A DNA stretch of 64,000 bases, taken from positions 14,661,051-14,725,050 of the forward strand of contig NC_041060.1 in NCBI RefSeq assembly GCF_900634775.1, in the 5' to 3' direction. The translations under genes and the position numbers were made by a program. The stretch comes from Gouania willdenowi. Taxonomy: Eukaryota. This document shows positions 28,256 through 64,000 of this stretch, piece by piece. The number at the start of each line of letters is the position of its first letter. Position 1 is the first letter of the stretch. The notes below the pieces were generated by a model. It was not told the origin of the DNA. It searched no databases and saw only the letters and a program-made list of their open reading frames with translations.

Positions 28256-28269
28256 GTAAAGTTCTGACC

Positions 28270-29532: not shown

Positions 29533-29650
29533 CAGGCATCGGCTCAGTTGGTAGAGGGAGTTGCCTTCTTTTCGGAAGGTTGGGGGTTTAATCTCAAACT
29601 ATGCCTGTTGCATGTGCATAAGTGTCCTTAAGCAAGACACTGAATTCTAG
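29533..29650 (+). mobile_element. tRNA-derived SINE fragment (GGCTCAGTTGGTAGAG A-box ... GGTTGGGGGTTTAATCTC B-box-like)
   Basis: tRNA-like box A and box B spacing, followed by ..GTCCTTAAGCAAGACAC.. as in the SINE family above. Confidence 0.6.
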
Positions 29651-30194
29651 TTTCTAAATAATTGTTAATTTAATGTACATAAAAGACAAATATTTTAAGT
29701 GCTACAAAATACAGTTACTGTACAAAATATATATGAACTCATTTGTTGTTGTTTTTAAAATACAAGTAATTTTTGGTGCTCGAGTCATATGACTATCGTC
29801 TTCCTTTCAAGGCTGCAGCAGAGCCTACATTACTCTGTAGCTCTCATTCTGATACTCATTAAAACATGAATATGATAAGGTTTTTGAAACATCCTGATCC
29901 CAAGGATTTAGAAAAAAAAACCAAGCCAACTTTTAACATTTATTTACAACATTAAACGATGCCGCTGCATTGACGCACATTTTTGTAGCCAACATTATCA
30001 ATTATGTTGCTAATCATTTTTGCCTTATTGTATATGTTGCACACATTGTGTAACCCCCAACCCCCCCCGCTCACCCCTTCCCTGGCAAGGATTCCAAACT
30101 CTGCCCATGGACTACACGTGTAGTTTAAAGCTCCATGTAAGTGATGTCCATTTGTAATTTAAAAAGTTCAATAATTCCTTTCCTTTTTCTCTAG

Positions 30195-30316
30195 TTGGAT
30201 TCGGCCCCGGACGGTTTGTCCATCACAGAGATGGAAGTGTGTCAGTTTCAGGCGCTTCACCCTGACGTGGCACACCAGCGAATGTTCTGCTACTTTAGAG
30301 ATCCAAACATCTTCAG
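30195..30316 (+). CDS. tep1: TEP1 exon 19
   Basis: SITEMEVCQF...MFCYFRDPNIF compared with human SVTEMEVMQF...ALIYFRDSSF. Confidence 0.9.
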
Positions 30317-30483
30317 GTACGCTCTTCAACCTCAATATGCAAAAACCTCAGTCTTTGATGGCACAATAAAGCGGTTTCAGTTGTTTAACTTTCTTTCTTG
30401 CTCCAAAGTCCTTAACTTGTCTACATTGTATTATATCATCGACATTTTATCAGCTTGTAAGCATGTTATTATCTATTTCTCAG

Positions 30484-30597
30484 CTCTATCCCTGCTGCCT
30501 GGAAATCTGATTTCTCACCTGAATCAAAAGAGGCTCAGGAAAAAATGAGTGCTTTTAAGAAAAGACTCATTGACAGTGGAGTGAAGGTCACAGAGAA
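30484..30597 (+). CDS. tep1: TEP1 exon 20
   Basis: PAAWKSDFSPESKEAQEKMSAFKKRL compared with human [26 protein letters not shown]. Confidence 0.88.
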
Positions 30598-30757
30598 GTG
30601 AGTCAGCTCTTCATAAGTCTGAACGTGCACTATTTATTAAACACAACTGATATTTTAAGTACTAGTTTTAAAGAACTTCCCTAGTTTTCCCAGATCCTTT
30701 TCTAACAAGCCACCACAGCATTATCCTTAATATTTACCACATCCCTAATACTTGCAG

Positions 30758-30875
30758 TTATTCATGTGAATGGGGAGGCATTGTGGATGGAAAGCCACAC
30801 CTGAAAAACCTGGAAAAGTTCAGCAATGCCGTTCTGGAGGATCTTTGGCTCGCTGTTAGGAAGATGTTTGTGGAT
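30758..30875 (+). CDS. tep1: TEP1 exon 21
   Basis: YSCEWGG..LEKFSNAVLEDLWLAVRKMF compared with human [27 protein letters not shown]. Confidence 0.9.
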
Positions 30876-31519
30876 GTAAGTAAGAAAACATTCTATCCAT
30901 CTGAGGCCTCTGGCTGAAATACATTCGTCTGCGGGTTTTTGTTTTTTTTTTTTAGCTCATAGCAAGCTATTTAATGAAAATAATACATACAACAATAGCA
31001 GGGGTTAAATTATGGAACTTTTTAAAGGATGAAATATAACAAAGCACTAACATAAACCAGTTTAAAAAGCTTTTCACATCATATATTGTTAGTAAGTATA
31101 AGAAAGAAGAGCAATAATTTCACCTTGGACAGCAATAATATATAACATGTATATAATGGTATAAAATACATTAATACTTAATAAACATAATAAAACATAT
31201 ATATTGAGATAGAGAATATTATTTTAAATATTGACACACTATATTTAAAATTTAATTGATGAAAATTGTGCAGTAAATATTAAATAGTGTATTATTATTA
31301 CGTACATGCATGTGTGTAAATGTGTGAACGTATATACCTTTTATGTATTTGTGTGATGTGCATGTATAAATAGAACTTTGTGCAGAATGTGTATTGTAAA
31401 ACTAGTAACATAAGTCTCCTAATTATATCATGCCAGTGTTGTTTGTTCTGTTTTCTTTTTTTTTTTAGTTTTTATGAAGAATGCCGAAATAAAATTAAAA
31501 TTTCTCCATCATCTTGTAG

Positions 31520-31708
31520 GAAGCAGAGAACTTAGAGGCTGCGACAGAGGTGCGCGAGCAGGAGGCTCACCAGGAGGCGCTGAGGAAGCAGTTCATCGGC
31601 AGGTCAAAGTTGCTCTCCGAAGCAATCGACAGAGTGGAGCGTTCACAGGACAAAGGATGGATCACTGTAGTAAAGGGAGGATCTGGCCACGGCAAGACTG
31701 TTTTCATG
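31520..31708 (+). CDS. tep1: TEP1 exon 22, NACHT Walker A / P-loop
   Basis: WITVVKGGSGHGKTVFM compared with human LSLVTGQSGQGKTAFL. Acceptor cttgtag, donor gtaaat, 63 codons. Confidence 0.9.
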
Positions 31709-31900
31709 GTAAATTGAATTTCCCACCAGTAGTAAACAAAGAATGACTGTAAAATTATTGTCTTGCTAGCTATATATTTACTGATGGAAATCTGCCCTTT
31801 GATCCACTCTACATAGCACGATGAGACAGTCCAGTACACTCAGGGTCTAACCCACCATCGACCTTAGTGTTGAAAGTTGTTTCTTCTTCCTAATACACAG

Positions 31901-32079
31901 GCTGCTCTTGCAGAAGCTCTTAAATCTGGTGTTAAATCAAAGAAACATTCAGTCATCTCCTACTCTACTGCTGCCAGCCAATCAGCTCGATCCGTTCAGA
32001 ACCTTCTCCGATGCCTCGTCTTGTGTCTTAAAGATATGAACGGCACAAAGGAGCAAACTCCATTGGCCTGCTCCTACAA
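31901..32079 (+). CDS. tep1: TEP1 exon 23, NACHT
   Basis: Follows the P-loop exon. LLRCLVLCLKD compared with human LLRRLCTYLRG. Confidence 0.8.
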
Positions 32080-32161
32080 GTGGGTTGCTGGCATTTTTTT
32101 TTTCTCCCAACCGAAAACAACCTACCAACTCTTTATGATTAAAATGTCTTTATTATCACAG

Positions 32162-32303
32162 GGAGATGCTGGCAGAATTTCACTCATTGTTGAATGATGA
32201 GAAAAGCTGTAAGCCTCTGGTGGTGTTGGTTGATGGAGTGGATCTAGTCCAGGATGGCAGAGGTCAGCTTAGCTGTGATTGGATCCCACAGCAGCTTCCA
32301 CAG
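32162..32303 (+). CDS. tep1: TEP1 exon 24, NACHT Walker B region
   Basis: KPLVVLVDGVDLVQDGRGQLSCDWIPQQLPQ compared with human TQVLIIDGADRLVDQNGQLISDWIPKKLPR. Confidence 0.92.
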
Positions 32304-33533
32304 GTAGGTGTGACAGATGAGGATAAAGGAAGCTTGATGGCTCTAAAGTGTAAGATTGGAAACAAAAGTCTGTCTCAGTTTTACACTCCAAATATTTTAC
32401 TCTTTATTTATTTTGTGAAATGTAATTTGACTGTTGGAGAGCTCCAATATTTGTGAATAAAACTTTTTGTAGCGCCACTGTCTAGGCAAATTTATTTGTA
32501 TAGCGCATTTCATACACAAGGCAACTCAATGTGCTTTACATGATAAAACATTCTACAGCTTAAAATCAATAAGAACATTCAAAGTCATCAGTAAAATCCA
32601 TTAAAATCATCAACAAACACATAACATCAACAGCATGACCAAAAATCTCTCTCTCAATCATACGCATTAGAGAAAAATGTGCCTTTAACTTAGAGGCTGC
32701 GACAGATGTATAACAAGTCTTGTAACAAGTGTAACAAGTCTTTTTTTTTTGTTTTTGATGGAAATAATATCTGATTAAAAAAGGGGTTAATAAAAAATGT
32801 TGTGCTGTTAGATTACTTTCTATAACAAATGAACAAAGTTGCCTGATTTTCATGGTATGCATCAGTGTTGTATTTACACTGTTGTTAAAATATTCTGTTC
32901 TAAAAAAAATTATAAATAATTAATTACCTGGCAATGATCCCCCTACCAAGCATTCGTTAGAACAAGTAACAATGACCTATTGAATGCATACATTTCAATT
33001 AAAAACAAGTACCATACCACCCAGAACAGAAACAGTTATTCCAGTGTTTATCCAATTTAAAATAAAAGTTAAAAACACAATAAAAGGGTCATTACCATTA
33101 TTTGAAATTGTAATACTTAGCAATAGTAAATTGCAAAGTTCAATGGACATTATGACAGTTAATTTTTCAGCTTGGGGCTTTAATGAAAACAAGGTTTTTT
33201 TTTTAATTGTTGTTCTGAAGACATAAAGGCTTTATCATATCTGCAATTGGGAATGTAATATTATAGTATAATGATGCTATTGATAGGGCTGTGTCTTAGG
33301 TCGAGAATGGATTGTTGCTTTTATTGATTTTTAAAATCTAAGTCCAACACAAAGATTCTCTTTCAGGTTCTGATTTTTTTTTTTTTCTTCTTTTTTTTTT
33401 TTTTTGCATTTAATCTAAATTCAAATTATTTGGACAAAGTTATTTCTCCTTTGATTTGATGTTTATGAGAGTAGGAGGAGCTAATGTGTGTTTCCTGAGA
33501 ACTTGCTATAACACTGACTTTTTCTGTCACCAG

Positions 33534-33713
33534 GGTGTGTGTTTGGTTGTGAGTGCCAATCCAAAATCACCTTTGCTACAAACGTTGCTGGAAAAGCAAA
33601 ACACCATCCCTGTTTACCTCGGACTTCTTAATGTGCCAGAACGAAGGGACATCATTCAGAACAAGCTGGCTGCTTTTGGGAAGAAACTCAGTGACTCTGC
33701 TTTCAACAACCAG
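33534..33713 (+). CDS. tep1: TEP1 exon 25
   Basis: GVCLVVSAN..RRDIIQNKLAAFGKKLSDSAFNNQ compared with human CVHLVLSVSSD..ARLVREELALYGKRLEESPFNNQ. Confidence 0.92.
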
Positions 33714-33818
33714 GTTCTTCTGCTTTTTTTTTTTTTTTTTTTTTTTTTACCTCAAGGACGTGACAATCTTTCTAATCAAGTGAACATTCTAAAATGATGC
33801 ATTGGGTGTGCTTGTCCA

Positions 33819-33911
33819 GCTCCACACATTGATGATGAAGAAAGGGGCAGTCAGTCCTTTCTATCTACACTTGGCCTGTGAGGACCTGAAAAACTTTGCT
33901 TCCTTTGACAA
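33819..33911 (+). CDS. tep1: TEP1 exon 26
   Basis: LHTLMMKKGAVSPFYLHLACEDLKNF compared with human MRLLLVKRESGRPLYLRLVTDHLRLF. Confidence 0.88.
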
Positions 33912-34139
33912 GGTTGGTCCAACTTTGTAATCTAGGTAATCCTTTTATCAACTAATTTGACACAACTATCATGTAATCCTTTCCTGTAGGCCGACATTTC
34001 TAAATGTAACACATGGTTGAACCTTTTTTTTTTTTTTTTTTTTTTTTTGGTTGAACCTTTTTAACACTCAGACACTAAATCCAGTGGTTGGATTCCAGTG
34101 CACTGATTTGGTCTGCATACTTTGGTCTCTGTGTCTTAG

Positions 34140-34275
34140 TTGAAAGATAATGTCCAGGATTTGCCACAGTCTCTGATCCAGCTCGTGCAACACAGTCTGG
34201 AGAGGCTGTGTTGGAACTACAGAGGCATACGTGGACTCCGCTGGGCTCTGGCAGTCCTCACCGTCAGCACCACTG
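34140..34275 (+). CDS. tep1: TEP1 exon 27
   Basis: LPQSLIQLVQHSLERL compared with human LPATVPLLLQHILSTL. Confidence 0.85.
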
Positions 34276-34378
34276 GTAGAAACTTTCATTATTACAGGCA
34301 AAAATCCAACACATTTTAAGTATTCAGGCTTATTCTTGCATTCAATGTTTCAATGGTGTTTTCTGCCAATATTCCCAG

Positions 34379-34538
34379 GCCTTAAGGAGATGGACTTTTA
34401 CTCAGTGCTGAACACTTGCAACACTTTGAGCTCTAAGAGTGAAGTGATCACCTGGGACAATGTGCTGCAGCTGTCCAAGAAGCCTGAAGGACGTGTTCCA
34501 ATGGCGATTTTTACTCGTATAGTGCAAATTTTGCAAAG
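34379..34538 (+). CDS. tep1: TEP1 exon 28
   Basis: Phase 1 to 2, lying between flanking exons that are conserved. Similarity to human is modest. Confidence 0.65.
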
Positions 34539-34920
34539 GTGATTCTCTCAAACCCATCGATTGTTGTCAGTTTTCCCAAACCAATACTTGGCTATGTGTA
34601 CTTGTCAAACCTGATTACCAATACCATACTAATACCACAAACACAAAAACCTATTAAGCAAAGTGCCATTAATTTGAAGACGTATTACATTTTTTTCTCT
34701 GCTTGTTATTATTGTGTATAAATTGAAAAAAGTAATTTAAAAAAATGACGTTTCAAGTGCATTTTCTTTAAAAATTGGACACCCCAGCGGCCAATCCCTA
34801 AAAATACAACAGAAATGAATGGCTGCCATTCAAAGCCATTGGATGCAATGGGGATCGGTTCCTGGTATGGGTGGACTTAATTGAGTATGACATATTGGTG
34901 TTGTATGGGACCCTAGTAAT

Positions 34921-34962
34921 CAGTGTGTGTGTGTGTGTGTGCGTGTGCGTGCGCGTGCGCGT
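34921..34962. repeat. (GT)n/(GCGT)n microsatellite
   Basis: Read directly from the sequence. Confidence 0.9.
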
Positions 34963-35754
34963 CTGGTCTTGTTTATAAATTACATGGTCGAAATAGTTTT
35001 TTCTTTTTATTTAGAGAGACAGTCTATGTTCTTTGATTTTATGTAATCTTCTTTTAACCAGGAAGGTCCCTGGTAGTGAGATTTAAAACATAAGTGAATC
35101 CTATGGCATCAACTTACAATACACACAGTACAAAAGATTTACAGACAAATATAACAATGATCTTATTAGGATCAGTAAAACAGTGACATCTTTTTTATAG
35201 TCTGATTAAATGTTTAAAGCGATTTAGTTGGATCAGCACAGCAAGTTGTTTGACAAAAACACAATATATGAACTTTAAAATGACTTTCCAAAGAAGAAAG
35301 CTCTTCCTTCTTATTTTCTTCTAACAAGTCGACTCATTTTTTCAAGTTATTAGATGTTTTACGATAAAATACGTTTAGAATTGACTCAAGACTTTTAAAT
35401 CTGTCAGACTACGTTGTGACGGATAGATACTTAACTTAAAACAAGTGTTTGCTCTCAGCAAATGTTTCTGAGATCTTCATGGGGAACAATGAAATGAAAA
35501 ATGAAATTGTCAAAAAGAAATATTCGAAAACACCCCCATGGAACACCATGACTCTCAGTATTATCAGATCTTAAATAGAATCTTTAACGTGTTTTAGTTT
35601 TTTCATTATTGAATCATGAGCCCCACTAACAAAAGTGAACCCTAGGAGAACAAGAACAGAGACACAAATGTCCATCTTGTCATAAAAAGTATATTTAAGT
35701 GCGGTTTCCTAAAATCTCTCACTTAATAATTTGAACCTGTCTTGTTCCCTGCAG

Positions 35755-35888
35755 TCTCATTGGTTCATCTCACTGCTACAACACGGATGACCTGTTGACT
35801 CAAACCCACACTGAGGTGAAACAAGCTTTTGAAAACTTCCTCCTCCACGTTGAGAGCGACCGAAAGAAAGCGCATCTAGTCCTAGCAG
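35755..35888 (+). CDS. tep1: TEP1 exon 29
   Basis: Acceptor ccctgcag, donor gtaaaa. Phase is compatible. Similarity is weak. Confidence 0.55.
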
Positions 35889-35958
35889 GTAAAATACAAT
35901 CGGCTTTATATTTTCACTCAAAATGTGGATTTAAATATTTTTTTCCTTTGTGCTTCAG

Positions 35959-36047
35959 CCCATCTGTGGACCCGAGCAGACCCTCAGGGACGAGACACAT
36001 TTCTTCACAGTGAAATGAACTCTCTCATGCATCTTCCACTCAGCCTG
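35959..36047 (+). CDS. tep1: TEP1 exon 30
   Basis: Acceptor gcttcag, donor gtaaga, phase 1 to 0. Confidence 0.55.
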
Positions 36048-36210
36048 GTAAGATGTCAGCCTAATTACTGAAAAACAGTAAAATGGAGTCTGAGTCTGTG
36101 CTCTTTTTGGTTTGTGATCTAAATAAAATTTACCAGTAATAAAATGAATGTAGAAATTTGTTTTTAATGAAATTTACCTTCTGAGTTTCTTTGTTTTATT
36201 TTTTTTCTAG

Positions 36211-36325
36211 GATTATATTGGACAAAGGGATGCTCTTAAGTTTCTACTTTCCAGCTACTACTTCCTGTACGCTAATGTCAGACATGGCCTCCTTCAGCAC
36301 CTCATGGAGACTTACAAATTATATG
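36211..36325 (+). CDS. tep1: TEP1 exon 31
   Basis: Acceptor ttttctag, donor gtgagt. LLQHLMETYKLY. Confidence 0.6.
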
Positions 36326-36515
36326 GTGAGTATTTCCACTTCATAGTTACACTCTATGGCTTTTATAGCGTACCATACGCTACAGGAACACTGCCCCTGT
36401 GCAAATGCAGGAATTTGGATTGGAAAAGGTTTTTGTACCCTGGTTTCCACCCAAAGCCCAAAACCATCTAAAAGTAAAACCTATGGGTCTCATTTCACTT
36501 TCTTATGTCTTGTAG

Positions 36516-36726
36516 GTTGCCTTGACAACCAGCTTGAGGATTGTCATGACTTCCTGCGGCGGCATGCTGTTACACTTTCCTCCTGGCCGGGTCTTTTCAT
36601 TCAGGAGGCTCTCAGAGAGCCGCCGGTGTCTCCTGTTTACGCCTGGGCACAGGGTATGGTGAAGATCGGACGAACCCGACTTGTTCAGTGTCAAAACAAA
36701 AATGTCTGGGATGTTCAGGAGATAAG
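36516..36726 (+). CDS. tep1: TEP1 exon 32
   Basis: DFLRRHAVTLSSWPGLF compared with human TFLRQQASILSQYPRLL. Confidence 0.8.
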
Positions 36727-36872
36727 GTTGGTTTCTTATGGCATGAAGGAATTATTAGAATAATAATTATTAAAAATCAATGAATAAATATGTATAGATT
36801 TGCATTGCTTGATGAATAAACATGATAGCTTAAAATTAACTGCATTTCTTCTCCTTGTGTATTTCACCTCAG

Positions 36873-51552: not shown

Positions 51553-51555
51553 ATG
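51553..51555 (+). CDS. Candidate initiator ATG placed as the last three bases of a 5' exon (ATG|gtaagt)
   Basis: ctactaATGgtaagt, phase 0 into the exon at 51663. The alternative ATG at 51248 is out of frame with downstream exons. Confidence 0.35.
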
Positions 51556-51662
51556 GTAAGTTTGCTAACAGGACTGAGTCACAACATGCTATTTGTTTTA
51601 GTAAACATGTCGTCTGTGAGGGTTAGTGTGTGCTTATTATAACCGTGGACGGTGTTTGACAG

Positions 51663-51722
51663 GATCGCTACGATGACCTTGATTTGGATTTGGAATGTGA
51701 GGAAGGAGGAGGAAACGTGTCG
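51663..51722 (+). CDS. Repeat-gene exon DRYDDLDLDLECEEGGGNVS
   Basis: Acceptor tttgacag (preceded by an in-frame TGA), donor gtgagt, 20 codons. Confidence 0.55.
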
Positions 51723-52239
51723 GTGAGTTTTTTTTGTTTTTTTTGTTTTGTTTTTAAAGCTTGTTTTCTCCTGAAAGTCCTTCATGACGTCACTCAACGC
51801 TGACCCTGAACAGTTCTGTACAAAGTGTTACTTTAGAAACACATGTAGTTTTTATAGAAACAAATGCAAAGTTTGGCATAGAAATCCTATTTTACTGTGG
51901 CCTATTTTGAGTTTTGTTTACATCAGTGGTTCTCAAACAGAGGTACGTGTACCCCTGTGGGTACAGGAGAAAATTGCAGGAGGTACTCGGAAAAAAATAG
52001 CAATTGATTTAAAAAAATATTTGGAAATGTTCCTAGTTCTTTTTTTAGGCTTTTTTTTTGGACAAATTAACAGTAGTATCGCTCAATAAAATACTATATT
52101 TTCTTGTGATTTATTGGAAAAGGATTATTTTATCACACTTCTTATAATTGGAGACAATAATGAGCTACATTTTACTAATGAGATTGTATTTACTTACTAA
52201 TGAAGTGATCAATAAAAGTTGTAGTTTAACTGACTCCAA

Positions 52240-52570
52240 CATACAAAATTATATTAATCCAAAAATGCAAAATGACTCCAAGTGCACAGCAGGACAACAA
52301 ATATGTACGAAATTACTTGCAAAAACACACAATATAAATCCCAAAACACCTAAAATAATATCAAAACAACAGAAAAACAAACAGAATGACAACAATAATA
52401 CACAAAACAAATCAATAAAGCATAATAAAAATAACATAAAATTGCACATAATGCTACCATCATCACACAAAACCTTTTGTTTTTCCTGTATTAATGCTCA
52501 AATCACAGTTTGTGGCCCCCGCTGTAATAAAAGTTGCCTATATCTGCGCTATATCTGCCTTTATTATTTG
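52240..52570 (-). repeat. Copy of the minisatellite-bearing element
   Basis: Near-identical terminal block GTTTGTGGCCCCCGCTGTAATAAAAGTTGCCTATATCTGC. Confidence 0.8.
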
Positions 52571-52813
52571 TTTACTGGGTGGGATTAGCGCCTTAGATAA
52601 GAACCTGCATTAGCCATTTATGCAATGGAGCTAAAGCACTTAATACATTTTTAAAAATTGATACCAATGTCCATAGAAGCACTTAGAAATTAACAAATAT
52701 AATTTATAGGATTGATTGTTGTTAACAACAAGCATTCTATGGGGTGTGAGACTTTGTTTTCCAAATGCGTCTGACTTGCATTCATTTTACATGGCTTTGT
52801 GTTTCTCACTCAG

Positions 52814-52885
52814 CAAAAAGCAGCATTATTTGGTGGAATGTTCAAGAAACCCAAGTCCTCAGAGGCATCAGACCACCAGACCCAG
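52814..52885 (+). CDS. Repeat-gene exon QKAALFGGMFKKPKSSEASDHQTQ
   Basis: Acceptor ctcactcag, donor gtgaga, 24 codons. Confidence 0.65.
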
Positions 52886-53585
52886 GTGAGAATGAATTTA
52901 AAATTAAATAACTGTTTTTATTTATTACCTCCGCCAAGCGCAGAGCAGTAAGGTTATGTTTTACCCTCCGTTTTAATTAACTATTTGACAATTAATAATA
53001 TCATCCTTAGTTCAAATGTTAAATGTATGTTTTGATTAATAGTGTTTATAAAAACAATGTAGGGTGCTTTTCTAGTTTATTTATTTTATCATAGTCAATG
53101 TACATACTGTATGTTGCATCGCATTTTTTGGTTTGCATATTTCAGGAATTTTCATATTTTCGGAATGGTATTGCCTGCTTTCACCAATTCATTGACTTTA
53201 TCCATTATGGTGGCCTTAAATTGTAATTATTCACATAATTTACTCTCTGTATTTATAAATCCATGGCCTTTTTTATGACAAATACTCACATTTTAGGGGT
53301 TTTTCACTCTTAAGAATTTAAATCTAAAGAAACATATCCTGCACTTATATATATTTTGTTAAACAATGCATTTTTTTAGTGTTTAATTTGAAATGTTGTG
53401 TGTGAGTCAATGTCATTTTTAACAGATATTGTTTTTTAATGTTCAGTGTTGTATTTTTTGTATATAATTTATATGTCTTATTGTGCAGCATTTTGGTCAA
53501 ACCTTGTTTGTGTTTAAACGTGCTTTATAAATAAATTGGATTTGGATTTTTATGTTTTCAACCAGTGGCTTGTTGTTATTTTACA

Positions 53586-53651
53586 GGACGTTTTATCAAC
53601 CAGCAGAGACATTTCAAAGAGCAATGACAGTCTGACAGACAGCAACAGCAA
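53586..53651 (+). CDS. Repeat-gene exon DVLSTSRDISKSNDSLTDSNSK
   Basis: ag/gt, 22 codons. Confidence 0.65.
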
Positions 53652-53746
53652 GGTGAGCCCCACGGCTAATATGTTGAATAATAATTATTGGTAAATATTG
53701 GGTTATTTTGTTTTCATTTATTTATTTATTTTTTTACGTGTGTTTC

Positions 53747-53812
53747 AGGACAAAGGGACATTTAAAGGAAAGTTTAAAAAAACTACCAAATCAGACAAAG
53801 AGGGTTCTTCTC
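53747..53812 (+). CDS. Repeat-gene exon DKGTFKGKFKKTTKSDKEGSSQ
   Basis: ag/gt, 22 codons. Confidence 0.65.
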
Positions 53813-54454
53813 AGGTTTGTAGTGACATCTGAAATTTGATGTCTTGTCTGAACCGTTTGGTCTTTAAAGCCCAATTTAATCACAAAATTTACAGATTAAT
53901 TAGTATTATTTTATCTTGCCCCATTACAGGCTATAAAATGTTTGTTTTTTTTAATGTAACTTTTGTACAGATTGGGTTTTCCATATTAAACTGCCTAGCC
54001 TAATCCTCTTAATATTTAATAGGTGAAAGTGGTTTTTATATTACAAACCAAGCTCTTAAGGCAGAAATTTACAGATTAAACAGTGGAAAATCAACTAATT
54101 AACACTATTCTAATACGATTGTTTTCAACTTAATTTTATTGCTGTTTCTTTGAAAAATATGTATTACCGGTAATAAAATCTATTTGCTAAAGTAATATTT
54201 TAGGCTATTGAGTCCACTTAAAAAAAAAAAGAGAGAGAGACTGAGAAAGATTTGAATTACATATTTTATTTTTGGATGAATATTTAATTTATGTGGAAAT
54301 CCTCTAACACTTCTTTTTATTGATTTAGTTTTGTTCTGTACTAATGTTCATATTGTTAAAATCAGGAGTCTAAATTGAGTGTTTGGCACTTTGGTTCGAG
54401 AGTTAGGTTCAATATTCAATTTAAATTTAGTGTTTTATTTTCCATGTCTACACA

Positions 54455-54526
54455 GGCCTCTCTGGCTTTACCAAATCCTGAAATGTCTGCGAGCTGTGAA
54501 AGCTTAGAAAACAACAAGCCACAAAA
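54455..54526 (+). CDS. Repeat-gene exon ASLALPNPEMSASCESLENNKPQN
   Basis: ag/gt, 24 codons. Confidence 0.6.
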
Positions 54527-54617
54527 TGTGAGACTTCTTCAGCTTTCTAATATTATTAACTATTTTACTAAATAGTTTCCAGGTTTCTGATGTTTCTGAG
54601 CTTTCATTTATTTTTAG

Positions 54618-54680
54618 GAGAAGTTGGTTGGGAAACCGAAACGATCCCCGAGACCAGGACACGTTCGGAGGCACTCGCAG
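54618..54680 (+). CDS. Repeat-gene exon EKLVGKPKRSPRPGHVRRHSQ
   Basis: ag/gt, 21 codons. Confidence 0.6.
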
Positions 54681-54784
54681 GTAAAATTTATATTAATTTG
54701 TGGCTTTATTTTTTTTTATTGGACAGAAGAAAGAATAAACTCTGAATTTAAGTCTGTTTGATGATGAATTATCTTATGCTTTAG

Positions 54785-54841
54785 GATCTTTTGGATTTCT
54801 CTCCCAGTAATGACGGCGTGTCTGAGGGTTCTCACTCAAAG
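54785..54841 (+). CDS. Repeat-gene exon DLLDFSPSNDGVSEGSHSK
   Basis: ag/gt, 19 codons. Confidence 0.6.
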
Positions 54842-55646
54842 GTAGGTTTTACCACAAGAACAAGCTTTTTGTTAAAAAAAAAAAAGTTTGTTTTATTAAA
54901 GTTATTTAGGGAATTTAGATTAAAACACTGATTGATTTTTGGAAAAATAATGAAATAGGGAATTGAGCTGTTGTATACCTCTTAGTCAGAGCTTGGTTGC
55001 ACGAAATAAATCTAATGGTAAACACTTTGTTAATTGTTGGGCCTTGTCTTTTCTGGTTGTTTCAGCCTTTGTAAAAGCAACACACCATATCGCTAAGCCT
55101 TTATCATTCTGCAAATTTAACCAGACTGTTATTAGCATAATGATTTGAAAAAAATTGTACTGTGAAATTGTGAAATGTGAGTTAAAGAATATATTTAGTG
55201 GGGGAAAAAACACAAAAAAAATACAAACAAATTAGGATTAACCTTTTAGAAATGCAAATATAATATATATATATATATATATAAGTGAATAAATGTGTGA
55301 TCTACTGGCATGTGTCACATGGATCTCCAACATTTATAGGGTTTGACCTGTGAGACAGCATTTTACATTGTATACTAGTTTTACTTTACTGTACACTTAT
55401 AGCAGCAGCTGATGGAATGCTGTTGCTGTTGTCCAGTATTTGTCACAGAGCTGTTGACTCGTTGAATGGAGAGTCTTTGTTTTGTGTGTGTGCATGGAAA
55501 CTGTGTGCATCAGCTGTTTGAAACAAGCACTCGTGTGAAACAATGGATTGATGCATGGTGTGATCAGTTTTTTGTATTGGTTTGTAATGTTCTAATAACT
55601 GTATTTCTTTAAGTAATTTTAATGTGACTTTGTGTGGGATCTGTAG

Positions 55647-55718
55647 GGATCTGGAGGAATGTTCAGTGGGATTTTTAAGAAGTCTCCAAAACCGCCCGAA
55701 GTGAAGACACAGTCTCAG
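55647..55718 (+). CDS. Repeat-gene exon GSGGMFSGIFKKSPKPPEVKTQSQ
   Basis: ag/gt, 24 codons, A-type repeat. Confidence 0.7.
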
Positions 55719-55785
55719 GTATAGAGTGAACAGTCCTGCTCATACTTTTATCTTTTGTTGATTCTATAACACGGATGTGTTTCAG

Positions 55786-55854
55786 GAGGATTTGTCTGCT
55801 GCCGTTAAGCCCTCGAACAGTAATGATAATCTATCTGAGAATGGCAACAGTAAG
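55786..55854 (+). CDS. Repeat-gene exon EDLSAAVKPSNSNDNLSENGNSK
   Basis: ag/gt, 23 codons, B-type repeat. Confidence 0.7.
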
Positions 55855-56238
55855 GTGAGTTTTGTAAATAGCAACCAATCAGCAGCATTTTCATTGTTGG
55901 CAGGTGCAAGACTTTTCTTTCAAAACTCTTTTTATTACACATTTTTGGCACTCAATTAACAAAGATTTCCACATTTTGTGCAGTAAATACGTGCATTAAA
56001 AAAACAAAACAAAAAACAAGAAAACAACAGGAACAAGGATAAACTTGAAAAGTCAATAATAATATTAGCAATGATCGTAATAGTAGGAATAATAGCAACA
56101 ATAATGTTAAACAAATAATCATGCAAAGCAATAGATAATTGATACCCGTGAAATTAAAAAGAAGAGAAAACACAAAATTAGAATGAAAGCAAAACATTTT
56201 TAAAAACATTTGCTAATGGTAAAATCCTGGGTTAACAG

Positions 56239-56310
56239 GAGCACGGAGGGATGTTCAGTGGGATGTTTAAAAAAGCCTCCAAACCTCTTGGCGCGAGGAC
56301 CAAATCTCAG
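56239..56310 (+). CDS. Repeat-gene exon EHGGMFSGMFKKASKPLGARTKSQ
   Basis: A-type repeat. Confidence 0.7.
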
Positions 56311-56399
56311 GTATTTGGGATATTATAAAGGCCAAGAATAACCAGAGGAAGGATTAATGTCTCTATTTACAAAATCTGCTGCTTTTCTGTTATATTCAG

Positions 56400-56468
56400 G
56401 AAGATTTATTGGCATCAAATGAGAAATTAGGCAGTAGTGACAATCTTTCAGTGAACACCAACAATAAG
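56400..56468 (+). CDS. Repeat-gene exon EDLLASNEKLGSSDNLSVNTNNK
   Basis: B-type repeat. Confidence 0.7.
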
Positions 56469-56906
56469 GTGAGCTATGTTCAAGGTTATTACCATTGTAT
56501 TTCTGTATGGGATGCATTACTTTACGTTTTGAACAACCATAAATGATAAAAAAGAAAATATTCTGGTTTATTTTTCCATTACTTTTGTTGCAAATGAACA
56601 TAAACAATAAAAAGATGTATGTATATGCACTGTATATGTTTGTATAGTATTCTTACATAATTAAAAACCAAATGTGAAGTTTAAAATGTTATTTTGTGAA
56701 GAAGGGGTAGGCATCTTTAAGTTCCTTGAACTTCTGCCTACTCCTTTTGAGCACTTTCTCCATTGAATACGTGTTACGTATTGTACATAAAATGTGTTTT
56801 TTATGTTGCTCAAATAAATAAATAAACAACAAACAACAATGACTCAAAGCAACAAGTCTTCACTGTAACTGCTGTATTTTCAAATGGATTTATTGTGATT
56901 TTTCAG

Positions 56907-56978
56907 GAGTCAGGAGGAATGTTCAGTGGGATTTTTAAAAAGTCCCCGAAAAACTATGGAGCCAGGGCAGAGTCCAAG
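56907..56978 (+). CDS. Repeat-gene exon ESGGMFSGIFKKSPKNYGARAESK
   Basis: A-type repeat. Confidence 0.7.
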
Positions 56979-57072
56979 GTTTTTATTTTACATTTTACTT
57001 CAATCACTCTTTTTGCCTTTATTATTTTTTCATCATAAATCATTTTCTTAAACTTTTGTTGCTTGCTTTCAG

Positions 57073-57141
57073 GAGGATTTGTCTGCACCCGGTGAGCTTT
57101 CTGGCAGCAAAGAAAATCTTTCGGGGAATTCCAACACCAAG
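57073..57141 (+). CDS. Repeat-gene exon EDLSAPGELSGSKENLSGNSNTK
   Basis: B-type repeat. Confidence 0.7.
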
Positions 57142-57304
57142 GTGACCTTTGTTTAGCTTTATCATTTATTGATTATCAACATTTATCTGCAAACACCAAA
57201 AACTATGATTAGGATTCTCTTAATGTAAAAGCATCATGTATTTTTGTGTGTACAATGTAAGATTTATTCAAATATGTGTTTAATATAATTATTCAATCCT
57301 TCAG

Positions 57305-57376
57305 GAATCTGGTGGGATGTTTGGTGGGATGTTTAAAAAAGCCTCCAAACCGTATGGAGCGAGAGCACAGTCACAG
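57305..57376 (+). CDS. Repeat-gene exon ESGGMFGGMFKKASKPYGARAQSQ
   Basis: A-type repeat. Confidence 0.7.
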
Positions 57377-57499
57377 GTACACAGCTTGATTCTGTATGTT
57401 GTATATTGTCATTTCTGCAGTATATAAAACTACTCGTTGCTCACTTTTATACTTATAACTTAAGAATTCATTGCTCACTTCCTTTTCACTAACATTCAG

Positions 57500-57568
57500 G
57501 AGGATTTGTCCGCTCCCAGTGAGCTTTCTGGCAGCAAAGAAAATCTTTCGGGGAATTCCAACACCAAG
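57500..57568 (+). CDS. Repeat-gene exon EDLSAPSELSGSKENLSGNSNTK. It is nearly identical to the exon at 57073.
   Basis: B-type repeat. The flanking introns are also duplicated. Confidence 0.7.
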
Positions 57569-57737
57569 GTGACCTTTGTTAAGCTTTATTATTCTTTGAT
57601 TATCAACGTTTATCTGCACATGCCAAAAACTTCCTAACATGACGAGATCAAAGAGCGTGCATTATGTGTAATTAGGGAACGGGTTCTCTTCACATTAATG
57701 TATCACAGATATTTTTGTGTTGTATTTTGGCCTTTAG

Positions 57738-57809
57738 GAATCTGGTGGGATGTTCAGTGGGATGTTTAAAAAAGCCTCCAAACCCTATGGAGCGAGAGCA
57801 CAGTCACAG
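57738..57809 (+). CDS. Repeat-gene exon ESGGMFSGMFKKASKPYGARAQSQ. It is nearly identical to the exon at 57305.
   Basis: A-type repeat. Confidence 0.7.
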
Positions 57810-57895
57810 GTACACAGCTTGATTCTGTATATTGTATATTGTCATTTCTGCAGTATATAAAGCATAGTAAGTATTCATTACTCACTGTCTTTTCA

Positions 57896-57961
57896 GGAGG
57901 ATTTATCTGCAGACACTGAGCTTTCAGGCAGCAAAGAGAGTTTGTCTGAGAATCGCACCAA
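57896..57961 (+). CDS. Repeat-gene exon EDLSADTELSGSKESLSENRTK
   Basis: B-type repeat. Confidence 0.65.
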
Positions 57962-58038
57962 AGTAACTTCAAATCCAACAAATTGAATCCAAAAAAATTT
58001 CAATATAGAAATCCCTGACATTATAGAATTTTCCTCAG

Positions 58039-58098
58039 GAAAAAGGAGGAATCTTCAGCGGTGTGTTCAGGAAGAAAGTTCCCAGATCTCAGTCTCAG
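58039..58098 (+). CDS. Repeat-gene exon EKGGIFSGVFRKKVPRSQSQ
   Basis: Degenerate A-type repeat. Confidence 0.65.
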
Positions 58099-58679
58099 GT
58101 GACGAAACTGTGACGTATGCAACGATTGTGTTCAAGGAAAAAAAGAGGAGAACCAGAGGAACTTGATTTGCAACATAAGTCAAACCATGGATGAAGTGGT
58201 TATCAAGACTGAGCTGAAATTATTTTGTCTTACAGGTTCTCCAAAGCATTTATAAACGCTTTGTCATAAGAATTGCTCAAACACCCAAACATGCCTTTGT
58301 TGGCTTTAGACTTATTACTAATGACTTAAATATGTTTGGTTACATAGTTTCTCAATATGTTTATTGATACTGTGAGCAGAAGAAACAGTCTGCTTATATT
58401 AGTGGGTGTTACCGTTAACCACATGGGTCTGTTACGGCCTGCGTTTTCACAAGCATGCATGTTTACGTCACTAAGATCGATACCAGTAGGTCGGGATGAC
58501 TCGTCAAAAATACTCGACACTATCATGCATTATGTCACATGGTTGAGCTGTCATCAGGGAACAGTTTGTCATTTATAATCTTCAGCTCAGATCTTCTGTT
58601 GCAAACTGGATTGATGAGATGTTTATTTACTAATACAAACAGCCAATGTGTTACTGTGTCCCTGCGAGGATGTAGACCA

Positions 58680-59165
58680 GGGGTGTCAAACTCATTTTAG
58701 TTCAGGGGCCAAATACGGAGCAGTTTCATCTCAAGACTGCTACAGATTTTATGCGGGGAAAAAACAAGTAATTTCAACATTATTGTGCCCTATTTGCACT
58801 TGTACGTATACATAGAATACAAAATATATAAGAAACAGGCAATATCCAAGCAATAAGTGACAGACATCAGTCCCAACAGGGTCTTCACTTTAACTTTAGA
58901 TTTGTGACCAATTTGTATTTAATTAGAGAAAATGTTCTGTAATAATTTCAGGAAAATGAAAAGATTTTGTAGAAAAGTTAATAGTTGATAGATGTAATAT
59001 AAGCACCGGGAAAACTGTGACCTCCTGCAAATATTGTTGAGTTTAATTTACAGAATTTTTCACGTTTTCTTTGTCATTTTTACTTTCTCCTGCGGGACAA
59101 ATTGGATGCTCCAAAGGGCCAGATTTGGCCCCCGGGGCCCTCAGTTTGACACCTGTGATGTAGAC
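58680..59165. mobile_element. MITE of about 480 bp with terminal inverted repeats GGGTGTCAAACTCATTTTAGTTCAGGGGCCAAAT ... GGCCAGATTTGGCCCCCGGGGCCCTCAGTTTGACACCTG
   Basis: The TIRs are reverse-complementary. A second full copy lies at 38040-38480 (tep1 intron) and a partial copy at 49795-49875. Confidence 0.75.
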
Positions 59166-59222
59166 ATACAAACTGCTTGTTCTTTCTGTAAAAATAAATT
59201 CATTGTGTTTGTTTCCCTAAAG

Positions 59223-59285
59223 GATTATTTGAATGCAGATGGGGAACTGTCTGTAGACACAGACCATTTTGAGAAGTCCTCAAAG
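59223..59285 (+). CDS. Repeat-gene exon DYLNADGELSVDTDHFEKSSK
   Basis: ag/gt, 21 codons. Confidence 0.6.
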
Positions 59286-60100
59286 GTAAACGATTAAGTA
59301 GTTTTTGTTCTCATACATCACTTTTTAAACATGGATATAATATACACTAGAGATGTTTGGGTTAGGGTTACTGTCAAAGGTGCTTTTAACTGCTAAACTT
59401 ATCATATGACTTTTAATGTTACAATGGCTCTTAAAACTTTCATTATTACATGTACGCTATTATCTGTACTTTGTAAAGTTTCTTTGAGTTTTTCGAAAAA
59501 AGCACTGTATAAAATAAAGATTATTATTATTATTAATAATAATAATCACAATGTGTGGATTTTATTCCTGTAGACACAAATCCGACACGATAAATTACTG
59601 TTAAAATTACGGCACAAACTAAATAACTACAATGCAAATGCTGCATTTTAAATTTCAACCAGAGTTAGAAGAATAAATAAGCATGTTAATTCACTTCTGT
59701 ACAAACACTATAATATTGTGCAAAAACCATGTAAACACAATAGAGCAGATTAACTTAACCTGATTTTGTCCGCTTGCTGTGCTATGTGACCTTTTGGTGT
59801 AATGACCCAATTCTTCTTGTACATCTTGTGTTAAACATAAGTTAGCATCCAGCATTTGGTTGCATTACCGCCACCTCTGTTTGAAACTTAAAACGCAGCC
59901 TTTGCATTGCAGTTCTTTAATCGACACAAAATGCCTGTGATCTAGTGATGATATGTTGACAGTAATTTATCGTGGCGAATTCGTATCCTCGATAGTAATA
60001 TTTTAATGTGTCTGCCAGGGCGTGGCATCAAAGATCAAATTCATAAATGTGTTGAGAACTCAACCAATCTCATCGGTGCTGTTCAATATCTTTATGTAGG

Positions 60101-60175
60101 AAAAGAAAAAGAGTGAACACCCAGGAGACTTGAATGAGGATAGCGCCAGTGCTGAGAAAGCTAAAGTCAAAGAGG
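60101..60175 (+). CDS. Repeat-gene exon EKKKSEHPGDLNEDSASAEKAKVKE
   Basis: ag/gt, 25 codons. Confidence 0.6.
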
Positions 60176-60292
60176 TATTTTACTGAACTGCAATAATCTA
60201 AACTCTTCAGTATCGTTTGTTGTACTGACAATTTTGCCCCTAATCAGATTTAAATGTATGCAATGTACACTAACACGTTTGTCTTATTTCAG

Positions 60293-60340
60293 AATGGTTT
60301 CGGTGCAAAGATGAAGAGCACATTTCACGCCGTCAAACAG
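60293..60340 (+). CDS. Repeat-gene exon NGFGAKMKSTFHAVKQ
   Basis: ag/gt, 16 codons. Confidence 0.6.
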
Positions 60341-60485
60341 GTGAGACGATGGCAAATGTTAACAAAAAGTCAACCAAGACTATTTAGAAATTTGAACCAA
60401 TCTTTTCTTTTGCGTAGAAAAATGCACTGAACCTTTTTGCTACTATTAGTTAATAAGGTATCATAACACCTGAATTTATTTCCAG

Positions 60486-60551
60486 GAGAAGAATGCTACC
60501 ACTGACGATGAGTTATCAGATAATGACGAGAACCAGCCACCTCAAAAACAG
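60486..60551 (+). CDS. Repeat-gene exon EKNATTDDELSDNDENQPPQKQ
   Basis: ag/gt, 22 codons. Confidence 0.6.
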
Positions 60552-60573
60552 GTTTTTGCACTTGGTTTTGCTC

Positions 60574-60608
<35 letters not shown>

Positions 60609-60641
60609 GTAAAAACTTTTGTATTCTTTGCTCTCATTCAG

Positions 60642-60695
60642 AGCAAACTGGCCGGAGCAATGAGCAAGCTGAACCCATTTCGAACTGCACATAAA
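60642..60695 (+). CDS. Repeat-gene exon SKLAGAMSKLNPFRTAHK
   Basis: ag/gt, 18 codons, KLNPFR motif. Confidence 0.65.
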
Positions 60696-60999
60696 GTAAG
60701 TTAATTAGGTCCGTACATAAATACATTTGATTTAACTTTAAATGGCTTCTATAGTGAAAAATAAATGTTTGCCAGTGCTAACTTCCTGCCATAAAACTCA
60801 TATTTGCCAAATCACACACATGGCTTGCAGATTTTAACGAATGATGTGAATTAACAGCTGCAGCCTACATTCATTCACTCAAACAGGAAATTTCAGCTAA
60901 TCAACATAGCATACTGTACATGTTTTTAGATCGTGGGAAGAAGCCAGATTATCCAGGGATATAATGTAATTTGTTCCTTTAATGCATACAGACAAAATA

Positions 61000-61400
61000 C
61001 CTTAGTTATTAACCAGAACAAAGAGATCAAAGCACATTAGGCCAGTCTTAGTCTTTACACTGGCTCCCAGTCAGCCTCAGAATAGACTTTAAAGTTCTGC
61101 TGCTAGTTTATAAAGGTGTGAATGGGTTTGGTCCAGAATACATCAGTGAGATGTTAGTCAGGTATGAACCCAGCAGTTCTCTCAGATCTATGGACACGGG
61201 TCAGATAATGGAGCCCAGAGCTCACAGTAAACACGGTGTAGCTGCTTTTAGTTGTTATGCTGCCAAGAAGTGGAACAAACTGCCAGCAGAGCTGAAGTCA
61301 GCATCTAATGTGAACATTTTTAAATCAAAGTTGAAGGAACTCATGTTTTTTTTTTTCTTTTCTACTGCCTCTGAAAAAGAGGGAGGTTTTTAGTCATTTT
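61000..61400 (+). mobile_element. SINE-like dispersed repeat. A second copy lies inverted at 46040-46330.
   Basis: GGCTCCCAGTCAGCCTCAGAATAGACTTTAAAGTTCTGCTGCTAGTTTATAAAGGTGTGAATGGGTTTGGTCC... is reverse-complementary to 46060-46330. Both copies produce spurious ORFs (..NGFGPE.ISE.LVRYEP..). Confidence 0.75.
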
Positions 61401-61565
61401 ATTGTTGAATACAGACTGTTTAACATTTTTATTTATGGAAAAGCACATTGAAATGCCTTGTCTATGAAATGTGCTATACAAATAAATTTTTCGGGCCCTT
61501 TGTTGTTTTGTTGAATAGTAGCCACAACTTCTTCTGTAAAAACAACTTTTGTGCTTTATTTACAG

Positions 61566-61637
61566 CATGAGAAGCAGCAGAGTTCAGACGAGGAGGAAAC
61601 AGTTCCTTACAAGGAGAAACCATCCGGTCACAAACAG
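61566..61637 (+). CDS. Repeat-gene exon HEKQQSSDEEETVPYKEKPSGHKQ
   Basis: ag/gt, 24 codons. Confidence 0.6.
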
Positions 61638-62093
61638 GTGCTTTGGGGTTTGTCTGTTCTTTAGATTTTCTTTTTTTTTTTTTTTTTAGGTTTGGTGAAT
61701 TATTTTAGTTCAATGTGAAAGGAAATCACTTGATGTTTTCTGCTTTTTATTCATACAGTCACACCTTAGGACTGCTTAGACATCTATAGTACATATTTTA
61801 AATCAAGCATAATAATTATTGTAGAGATATAAATAAAATAAAGGTATAAAGTAATTGAGATGATTTTAATAAGGTCGTATAATAAATGTGTCACACGCAA
61901 AAGTCTTTGACACAAGTTTTTTGCAAGTGTATTTACAGTTACAAAGAATTGAAACGTATTGTGCCTTTTAACCATTTATATGAATATAGTCACCATCCTC
62001 ATAGTTACTATAAACATGTATCTTAACTTTAGCGTGGCATGTCTGCTCTCATGGAGTCAAAGTGTGAATCTGATGATGTTTGCTCCCTCATAG

Positions 62094-62147
62094 AACGCCA
62101 TGGTTGAAGCTATGGCCAAACTGAATCCATTTCGATCGGCACATAAA
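62094..62147 (+). CDS. Repeat-gene exon NAMVEAMAKLNPFRSAHK
   Basis: Second copy of the KLNPFR.AHK exon type. Confidence 0.65.
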
Positions 62148-62548
62148 GTAACTACGATACGGATAAACTTTCTGTGTGGAGGTGATGGGCTAGCTCTGAT
62201 AGCTTTACTCCAGACGACTTTACTTCAAATCTGTAAAAAGGCACCAGAACAAAGCCTGACTAACCCATTTCTACACTTTGTTGGGTTTATTACTTTTTTA
62301 AGCAGCCATTGATTTGAAATCATTCCAACATTTTTGAATATTTCCGCTGATGTGTTATTCTAACACATACTGTATGTACAGTAATTTAATATCAGCGGCA
62401 GATGTATTTATTTGAAATCAATGGCTTGATGTTTTACATGGCCCTAAAACTCTAACAAATAACATTTTCACACCTAAAAAATCAGTTGGGTTTTTTTTTT
62501 TTTTTTTTTAACTCAGTTCAAGGCTCGTTTCCCATTCTATTTGTGCAG

Positions 62549-62608
62549 AAAGATTCTGAAGCTGTAGAGACGCTCGCCGAGAAGGAAGTGAAAGAGAAAC
62601 CCAAACCG
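62549..62608 (+). CDS. Repeat-gene exon KDSEAVETLAEKEVKEKPKP
   Basis: ag/gt, 20 codons. Confidence 0.55.
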
Positions 62609-62823
62609 GTCAGTCTGTATTTTTGTATTTCTGCTCATTAAATAGCGACCACACACACACGCACACACACAGCTATTCTGTCCTGATTTAATAATGCACA
62701 CCTCCTTATCTTCCTTATAATGATCACATCTTCATCACTTTAATTATTCTCTGCTCACTGTTAATTTCACCGTCTGTTTACTGAGTGATTTTAATTGTGT
62801 GTTATGGCGCATTTGTTTGTCAG

Positions 62824-62901
62824 ATGAAAAGGAACATGATCCAGTCGGAAAACAAGGAGAGAAGTGAAACGCCACCAGTCCCACGCAGAACTACTTCAAA
62901 G
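62824..62901 (+). CDS. Repeat-gene exon MKRNMIQSENKERSETPPVPRRTTSK
   Basis: ag/gt, 26 codons. Confidence 0.55.
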
Positions 62902-62984
62902 GTCTGAATGCAGGCAGATACGGTTCCTGTTTGATGTTTCACAGCCCTTTTGTGTTCTAACTTTTCTGTTGTTGTTGTATTACA

Positions 62985-63044
62985 GGAGAATACAGGGATG
63001 GCCACTGAGGACAGAGTGAAACCAAGAAGAACCAAATATGAGAA
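62985..63044 (+). CDS. Repeat-gene exon ENTGMATEDRVKPRRTKYEK
   Basis: ag/gt, 20 codons. Confidence 0.55.
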
Positions 63045-63395
63045 GGTACAGCGAGTAATGCAGCTTTTATTCTGGCTTTTTGATTACACCGGTTTACTTA
63101 CAAGTGAAGTCTTTGATCTCTTAATCGGCCAAGTCTCACCTTTGAAGCTGAGAATCAAATTAATTTAACTTACTGATATTTATTTATTAAAAAGATTTTT
63201 TTCTGATTAATTGTCCATAGTAAGAGGCTGAGATATTGGGTGTCTAGCACTGGCTTTGATTGCTGGATTTCTTTCCATTCGTATCCGCTAAAACGCATCT
63301 TTTAAAAACATTACATTATTCAAATTATGTTTAGCTGCTTTTATCTTGCAAAATTACAAAATTGATGGTTAAGTCAGTCGTTTAATTTTTTGCAG

Positions 63396-63476
63396 AACAA
63401 GTCTGATGATGAAGGCATCGACGCAGGTGAATTGCCCCTGAGCGAGGAGCTCCAGAAAGATGCTGAAAACAAACCC
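63396..63476 (+). CDS. Repeat-gene exon NKSDDEGIDAGELPLSEELQKDAENKP
   Basis: ag/gt, 27 codons. The gene continues beyond the window. Confidence 0.55.
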
Positions 63477-64000
63477 GTAAGTGTGTCCGGCTTTCATTTT
63501 GGTCAAAGGATTCCGTTTTATGGCTAAAGTTCAGTACAAACAAGAAAGGAAGGAAGCTATTTAACCATGCCACATTACTAACATTCATGTCAGTGTTTCG
63601 GATAACCCATCTGAACATTAATACAGGAAAGAACAAAGTTTTTGTTGTCATTTTGGATATTTTCTAGTTATTTTGATGTATTTTTGTTTGTTTCTATTGT
63701 CATTTTGTGTGTTTTTAGAGTATATTGGTTTATTTTTGTTGTTGTTTGGTATATGTTTGTATTGTGTGTATTTTTAGCCGTTTTGTAAATGGTAAATGGT
63801 AAATGGACTTGATTTATATAGCGCTTTATCACCACACTGAAGCAGTCTCAAAGCGCTTTACAGATCAGCTCATTCACCCAAACACTCTCACATCCACACA
63901 CCAATGGGGCAAGACTGCCATGCAAGGCGCTAGTCGACTACTGGGAGCAACTTAGGGTTCAGTGTCTTGCCCAAGGACACTTCGACACATAGTCAGGTAC

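Follow-up and report, generated by a model that had tools for sequence, protein, structure and literature searches.

In the window analysed here, a stretch of 64,000 nucleotides from Gouania willdenowi, an array of alternating micro-exons contains a tandem duplication of an exon pair together with both of its introns. The two copies lie side by side on the forward strand: copy 1 (57068..57494) consists of the last 5 nt of an acceptor, exon B3, an intron, exon A4 and the junction intron; copy 2 (57495..57891) consists of exon B4, an intron, exon A5 and the intron that runs up to the acceptor of exon B5. We favour, at a probability of about three in four, a single tandem duplication of one full unit followed by neutral divergence under coding constraint. 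The preliminary description of this DNA had already recognised the duplication of the B and A exons with their introns, and both its block coordinates and the peptides it quoted prove exact; its view of the age of the event does not survive, and its view of the mechanism survives only in part.

The duplicated unit and its junction

Each copy comprises one B and one A exon, all four of them in phase 0. In the first copy these are B3 (57073..57141, 69 nt), encoding EDLSAPGELSGSKENLSGNSNTK, and A4 (57305..57376, 72 nt), encoding ESGGMFGGMFKKASKPYGARAQSQ; in the second they are B4 (57500..57568, 69 nt), encoding EDLSAPSELSGSKENLSGNSNTK, and A5 (57738..57809, 72 nt), encoding ESGGMFSGMFKKASKPYGARAQSQ. 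Every one of the four has an open frame, a length that is a multiple of three, a pyrimidine tract and flanking AG and GT dinucleotides, and orthologous B exons are annotated in Synchiropus. The adjacency of the repeats, the retained frame, the splice signals and the constraint described below are those of an intragenic tandem exon duplication, and inclusion of both copies in the mRNA appears probable.

The tandem repeat has a period of 427–433 nt. Homology between the copies sets in at 57068 and 57495, respectively, and spans the whole period; upstream of 57068 similarity is gone, and at exon B5 it becomes ∼73%. Two stretches align without gaps: 57068–57204 with 57495–57631 (92% over 137 nt) and 57298–57428 with 57731–57861 (96% over 131 nt). 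When the entire period is aligned with gaps, the B exons are identical at 66 of 69 positions and the A exons at 69 of 72; the introns leading from B to A agree in 87% of aligned columns (94 gap columns) and those leading from A to B in 91% (36 gap columns). At the level of the array, A4/A5 and B3/B4 are each 96% identical, and all other A–A or B–B pairs share 79% or less.

The introns were examined by comparing all 120 pairs among the 16 introns of the array, with scores set against shuffles. Only two pairs rise above noise: A4>B4 with A5>B5 (z=33) and B3>A4 with B4>A5 (z=26); the next of the 120 pairs reaches z=3.1. The preliminary description called these introns highly similar, which is true of their first 52–62 nt; the remainder can be aligned only through ∼10 indels. 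Even these indel-ridden remainders are still alike (z=4.5, 1/500 shuffles, and z=6.4, 0/500), and since this holds for both introns the entire period must have been copied, the exon-proximal parts together with the rest. A transposable element was considered as the origin of the intron likeness and rejected: the likeness does not extend beyond one period, and none of the other introns has these segments.

The intron after exon B also aligns over its first ∼40 nt (57142–57182) with positions 1100–1137 of a Logan contig from another fish (L005), to which other intron sequence does not align. This intron start may be a conserved intronic splicing element.

Homology starts 5 nt before B3 and B4 and stops just before the B5 acceptor; a unit thus comprises, in order, a B exon with the intron after it and an A exon with the intron after it. 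The junction intron between A4 and B4 (57377..57499, 123 nt) is homologous to the intron between A5 and B5 almost to its end, where a filler, CTAACA (57489–57494), precedes TTCAG. The junction thus reads ...CCTTTTCA-CTAACA-TTCAG, followed directly by B4, with between 6 and 10 extra bases. The acceptors and exon starts of B3 and B5 have only TTTCAGGAGGATTT (14 nt) in common, and it is there that the breakpoints fall. From exon position 9 onwards B4 agrees with B3 and not with B5, which puts the exchange point within those 14 nt.

Unequal crossing-over had been put forward as the mechanism. The junction would fit an exchange in which B exons paired one period out of register; it would fit a microhomology-mediated template switch, or replication error, at least as well. 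Given the short homology and the extra bases, classical homologous unequal crossing-over is no likelier than a replication-based event, and it stands as a plausible route rather than an established one. It is possible that the filler bases are a later small insertion. A hybrid B4 was considered as proof of a crossover inside the exon and rejected: the two private synonymous changes of B4 are derived, and not B5-like.

The junction also gave rise to CACTAACATTCAG (57485–57499), where a consensus-like branch point, CTAAC, lies unusually near the splice site, ∼10 nt before the B4 acceptor.

The host gene and its relatives in other fish

The duplicated pair lies in an array of 17 alternating micro-exons (52814..58098, forward strand). 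A exons begin at 52814, 53749, 54618, 55647, 56239, 56907, 57305, 57738 and 58039; B exons begin at 53587, 54456, 54785, 55786, 56400, 57073, 57500 and 57897. The A exons, of the GGMFSGMFKK type, are basic with a hydrophobic core (xGGMFSGMFKKxxKP...QSQ) and a net charge of +2 to +6; the B exons are acidic and Ser/Asn-rich (EDLSAxxELSGSxENLSxNxxK), with a net charge of −1 to −3.

Our own model of the host gene, built from splice sites and homology, covers its 5′ part (51555..64000, forward strand) and runs off the end of the window. It opens with a start codon (ATG/gtaagt) at 51555–51557, continues with exon 2 at 51663–51722, which encodes DRYDDLDLDLECEEGGGNVS, and after the array includes at least 11 more exons, all in phase 0, between 59223 and 63476, two KLNPFR exons among them. 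All 29 predicted coding exons (51663–63476) are 48–81 nt in length, multiples of three and in phase 0; skipping or duplicating any subset of them would thus leave the frame intact. The predicted protein finds its best match in three RefSeq proteins of Synchiropus splendidus (P0177, P0179 and P0129; E ∼1e-102), and in the RefSeq exon map of that species each A or B unit is one exon and the initiator Met sits on a separate upstream exon. In Pfam scans of the 644-aa predicted product, of the Lampris homolog P0128 and of P0001, the array matched no domain. For the repeat part of P0128, a single-sequence AlphaFold model shows low-confidence coil (pLDDT 39–49), which is consistent with, if weak evidence for, the predicted disorder of this N-terminal region.

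A sensitive search with P0128 recovered 48 relatives, and all of those with a source name are teleost. The eight long homologs that were scanned all end in an ApoL domain (PF05461; 8/8). The family falls into two paralogs. Type 1 has the N-terminus MEQC...PKPPKPPPKP, is without NPF motifs and is named apold1a in Osmerus and Sardina; type 2 has the N-terminus MDRYDxLDLDLECE and NPF exons. RefSeq names for type 2 are varied: ‘apolipoprotein L1 isoform X’ (Poecilia, Alosa and Hypomesus), ‘titin homolog’ (Synchiropus), ‘HDGFRP2-like’ and ‘DMP1-like’. Judged by its sequence, the window gene is type 2, a teleost TEP1-linked ApoL-domain gene: the N-terminal motif is followed by the A/B repeat and then by KLNPFR exons, and the gene lies directly downstream of TEP1 on the same strand. 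TEP1 itself occupies approximately 19000..45000 of the forward strand, where Pfam finds TROVE, DUF4062/NACHT and the TEP1 beta-propellers; one conserved TEP1 exon has its best match in the protein collection at only 89%. These features (N-terminus, A/B array, KLNPFR exons and adjacency to TEP1) are held in common with the teleost ApoL-domain genes; the differences are that the window ends before the ApoL exons, which are expected downstream of it, and that the variable zone of the array has five A–B pairs as opposed to two or three in the relatives compared. The order TEP1, array gene, ApoL exons recurs in Oryzias melastigma (L002) and Stigmatopora nigra (L008), and ApoL exons are also found downstream of the array in Odontesthes, Lampris and Synchiropus. 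The alternative that this is a secreted gene of the SCPP type was dismissed: the orthologs have no signal peptide and the ApoL context misfits. Literature searches on apold1a, apold1b and apol1 in zebrafish found nothing, and a search on TEP1 together with apolipoprotein L found nothing relevant.

Several further features of the locus deserve mention in their own right. An older exon-pair duplication is present in the same gene, at 60486–60695 and 61566–62147: an acidic exon is followed by a KLNPFR exon (SKLAGAMSKLNPFRTAHK), and the pair recurs as HEKQQSSDEEE... with NAMVEAMAKLNPFRSAHK; the KLNPFR exons of O. melastigma number three to four (L002 at 15498, 16181, 17896, with a stop, and 19682). 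Two related open frames, at 61052–61390 on the forward strand and 46051–46290 on the reverse strand, resemble transposon tails (..LPVSLRIDFKVLLLVYKGVNGFGPEYIS..) and have no Pfam match; one of them is intronic to the array gene. The interval that separates this gene from TEP1 contains a forward open frame of 190 codons (46889–47458), nearly all Glu, Asp and Lys and with no match in Pfam; it is set in a GA-rich stretch (GC skew +0.21) and may be an exon or a simple repeat. A reverse-strand open frame of 192 codons (13731–14306), likewise without a Pfam match, falls where the G+C content of the window peaks (0.41) and could belong, as an exon, to a gene lying upstream of TEP1. Outside Gouania, two loci of the snake pipefish Entelurus aequoreus (LOC133631130 and LOC133631141) encode near-identical type-2 proteins (P0142 and P0207), and P0142 has an internal repeat of 44/45 identical residues at an offset of 294 aa.

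Repetition of whole units is widespread among the relatives. Internal 45-aa blocks with at least 80% identity were found in 12 homologs, in at least 10 of them within the A/B array, and the offsets of the A/B blocks correspond either to one pair (43–47 aa) or to several units (86–201 aa). Examples are Scomber (45/45 at offset 43), Sardina (41/45 at 44), Aldrovandia (40/45 at 46) and Boreogadus (45/45 at 148). On these protein comparisons unit duplication, or concerted evolution, appears to be recurrent in both paralogs. Predicted isoforms of other fish skip units in frame: in Osmerus, X1 as compared with X3 lacks exactly one B–A pair (45 aa) and X4 is without an A–B pair; one isoform of Pseudoliparis is without one B exon and one of Hypomesus is without one KLNPFR exon. 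This supports cassette behaviour of the units.

One A-type exon of two atherinomorph fish carries an in-frame stop in the same place (L001 12267–12320, ..KKIPKAL*; L002 13865–13920, ..KKSSKAL*). This exon, omitted from the protein model of O. melastigma, may have been conserved as a poison exon, or it may be decaying.

Age and origin of the second copy

Coding differences between the copies are few and mostly silent. B3 and B4 differ at three positions, as do A4 and A5, and in each case two changes are synonymous and one exchanges Gly and Ser; four of the six exon differences are accordingly synonymous, and both of the nonsynonymous ones are Gly/Ser. A4 has a derived Phe codon (TTT) and a derived Gly (GGT) when set against all the other A exons. 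The resulting estimates (dS 0.14, from 4/31 synonymous sites; dN 0.018; dN/dS ∼0.13; Fisher p=0.02, on small counts) suggest that both copies are still constrained and are apparently used as coding exons. In the ungapped intron blocks 10/126 sites differ (JC 0.084), and the gapped intron alignment gives ∼11%; intron divergence, at 0.08–0.11, is thus in line with dS. Such agreement between synonymous and intron sites is what one event would leave behind if drift was neutral thereafter and purifying selection acted on the protein. In addition, ∼10 indels of 2–32 nt separate the copies, among them indels of 32, 25 and 24 nt.

The preliminary description regarded the duplication as very recent, and with these figures (10/126 differences in the ungapped introns, dS 0.14 and the indels) that claim is not supported. 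With assumed neutral rates for teleosts of 1e-9 to 1e-8 per site per year, the divergence implies an age of ∼4–70 Myr; it is at least 10x typical allelic divergence. The duplication is the youngest event in the exon array; it would nevertheless be millions of years old, and it is probably fixed. Comparison with other fish sets an outer limit. Both copies are equally distant from the Synchiropus units (65–72% at the nucleotide level), which puts the duplication, or a homogenisation, after the two lineages separated. Eight loci were compared at the DNA level (Odontesthes, O. melastigma, Lampris, three Logan contigs, Synchiropus and Stigmatopora): alignment is confined to exons, at 70–88%, and introns fail to align, so that the phylogenetic bracket on the age is no tighter than this.

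We propose that, in the lineage leading to G. willdenowi, one segment of 427 nt – beginning 5 nt before a B exon and taking in the next A exon and the whole of the intron after it – was probably duplicated in tandem. This would have added one B–A exon pair (47 codons) to a pre-existing array of alternating A and B micro-exons. Because all exons of the array are in phase 0 and multiples of three, the extra pair would have stayed in frame, and splicing could include or omit it as a cassette. Introns and synonymous sites would afterwards have diverged neutrally (∼8–14%, with the ∼10 indels), and nonsynonymous sites would have been conserved. The likely effect is one more basic-hydrophobic A motif, with an acidic spacer, in a multivalent disordered region.

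The strongest competitor, which we nonetheless hold to be unlikely, is that two old paralogous units were homogenised by gene conversion over about one period, without a new duplication. Synchiropus, too, has two consecutive ‘EDLSAP...’ B exons, and the two-unit arrangement may predate the split; near-identical adjacent units recur in many homologs, as concerted evolution would also give; and divergence is slightly uneven along the unit. In the 62 nt after exon B there are 8 mismatches (12.9%) as compared with a single one in the 52 nt after exon A (1.9%; Fisher p=0.04, uncorrected), a pattern that could reflect partial gene conversion or, equally, a constrained intron element. However, the likeness amounts to exactly one full period, takes in both introns end to end and terminates at the unit borders. 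Counting from the conserved RSPRPGHVRR-type A exon and its partner B exon to the short terminal A exon, moreover, the array has five A–B pairs in the window, three in Synchiropus and two each in Odontesthes and O. melastigma: a net gain has occurred. The agreement of dS with intron divergence also points to a single time point. Although a conversion tract of one period and a duplication are inseparable from a single genome, conversion is disfavoured.

Returning to a single tandem duplication of one unit, it might be supposed that the event is so recent as to be segregating still, and the preliminary description did envisage that copy number varies between individuals. B3–A4/B4–A5 is indeed the youngest unit pair of the array, direct repeats of ∼430 nt at ∼90% identity could in principle permit further unequal exchange, and array copy number changes between species in this gene family. 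Against this, neutral divergence of ∼8–14% together with the indels is far above allelic variation and implies millions of years, and there are just two copies, which are not near-identical as in known copy-variable exon arrays. A segregating copy-number polymorphism is on this basis very improbable. An assembly artefact, whether an expanded repeat or two haplotypes set in tandem, which the preliminary description named as the finding that would overturn it, deserves almost no credence. Nothing speaks for it beyond the risk common to all repeats: the copies differ at ∼8% of sites, at 29 positions of the gapped alignment, and by many indels, which excludes an artefact of identical copies, there are no Ns within 55000–59000, the unit borders match the periodicity of the exon array with frame and splice sites kept, and an artefact would not yield substitutions biased towards synonymous sites.

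Comparison with known systems and wider meaning

Alternation of acidic Ser-rich and basic blocks is known from the repeat exons of Treacle (TCOF1) and Nopp140 (NOLC1). As in the array described here, the alternation is carried by successive small exons and the protein is disordered; there is, however, no sequence relationship, the basic unit in the window has a hydrophobic GGMFSGMF core and its relatives end in an ApoL domain. Copy-variable arrays of two-exon units occur in human LPA (kringle IV-2) and in NBPF (Olduvai). Here again the unit is an exon pair with its introns and growth is by unit duplication. In contrast to those arrays, with their many near-identical units (about 99%) and proven variation between individuals, the window has two copies at ∼90–92% identity plus indels; beyond these two similar units the remainder share 79% or less and have unrelated introns, which is unlike the several near-identical units of LPA KIV-2. 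Nor does the array look like a cluster of mutually exclusive exons: annotated orthologs join successive A and B units in series in one protein.

The A-exon core GGMFSGMFKKSPK combines Phe and Met with a cluster of Lys. In this it resembles basic-hydrophobic membrane-binding motifs of the MARCKS effector-domain type (FSFKKSFKLSGFSFKK); there is no homology, and the resemblance is offered only as a lead. It is tempting to go further. The A/B array might be an undescribed, fast-evolving multivalent module, in which a basic-hydrophobic GGMFSGMFKK element, possibly membrane-binding, alternates with a phosphorylatable acidic Ser-rich spacer, placed N-terminal to ApoL in two teleost paralogs and tuned in valency by recurrent lineage-specific exon-pair duplication and cassette splicing. 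We regard this as speculative and rather doubtful; if it were true, the duplication in the window would be one snapshot of valency tuning. In any event the GGMFSGMFKK motif is flagged as worth a biochemical test.

As an evolutionary event the duplication is in keeping with an established principle, namely that exon-phase symmetry and disorder favour modular evolution (PMC3632108). Whole exons with their introns have been repeated in tandem, in phase 0, in low-complexity sequence that is predicted to be unstructured. There is no difference in kind: the window adds one more example, this time from a fish gene that is uncharacterised. In this sense it is textbook gene growth by tandem duplication of symmetric exons, and little changes. 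The host is nonetheless a teleost gene that goes under contradictory RefSeq names and whose repeat is without a Pfam model. With exon pairs duplicated independently across many lineages of fish, and for both paralogs, the family offers a natural series on the evolution of repeat number and splicing in a disordered region.
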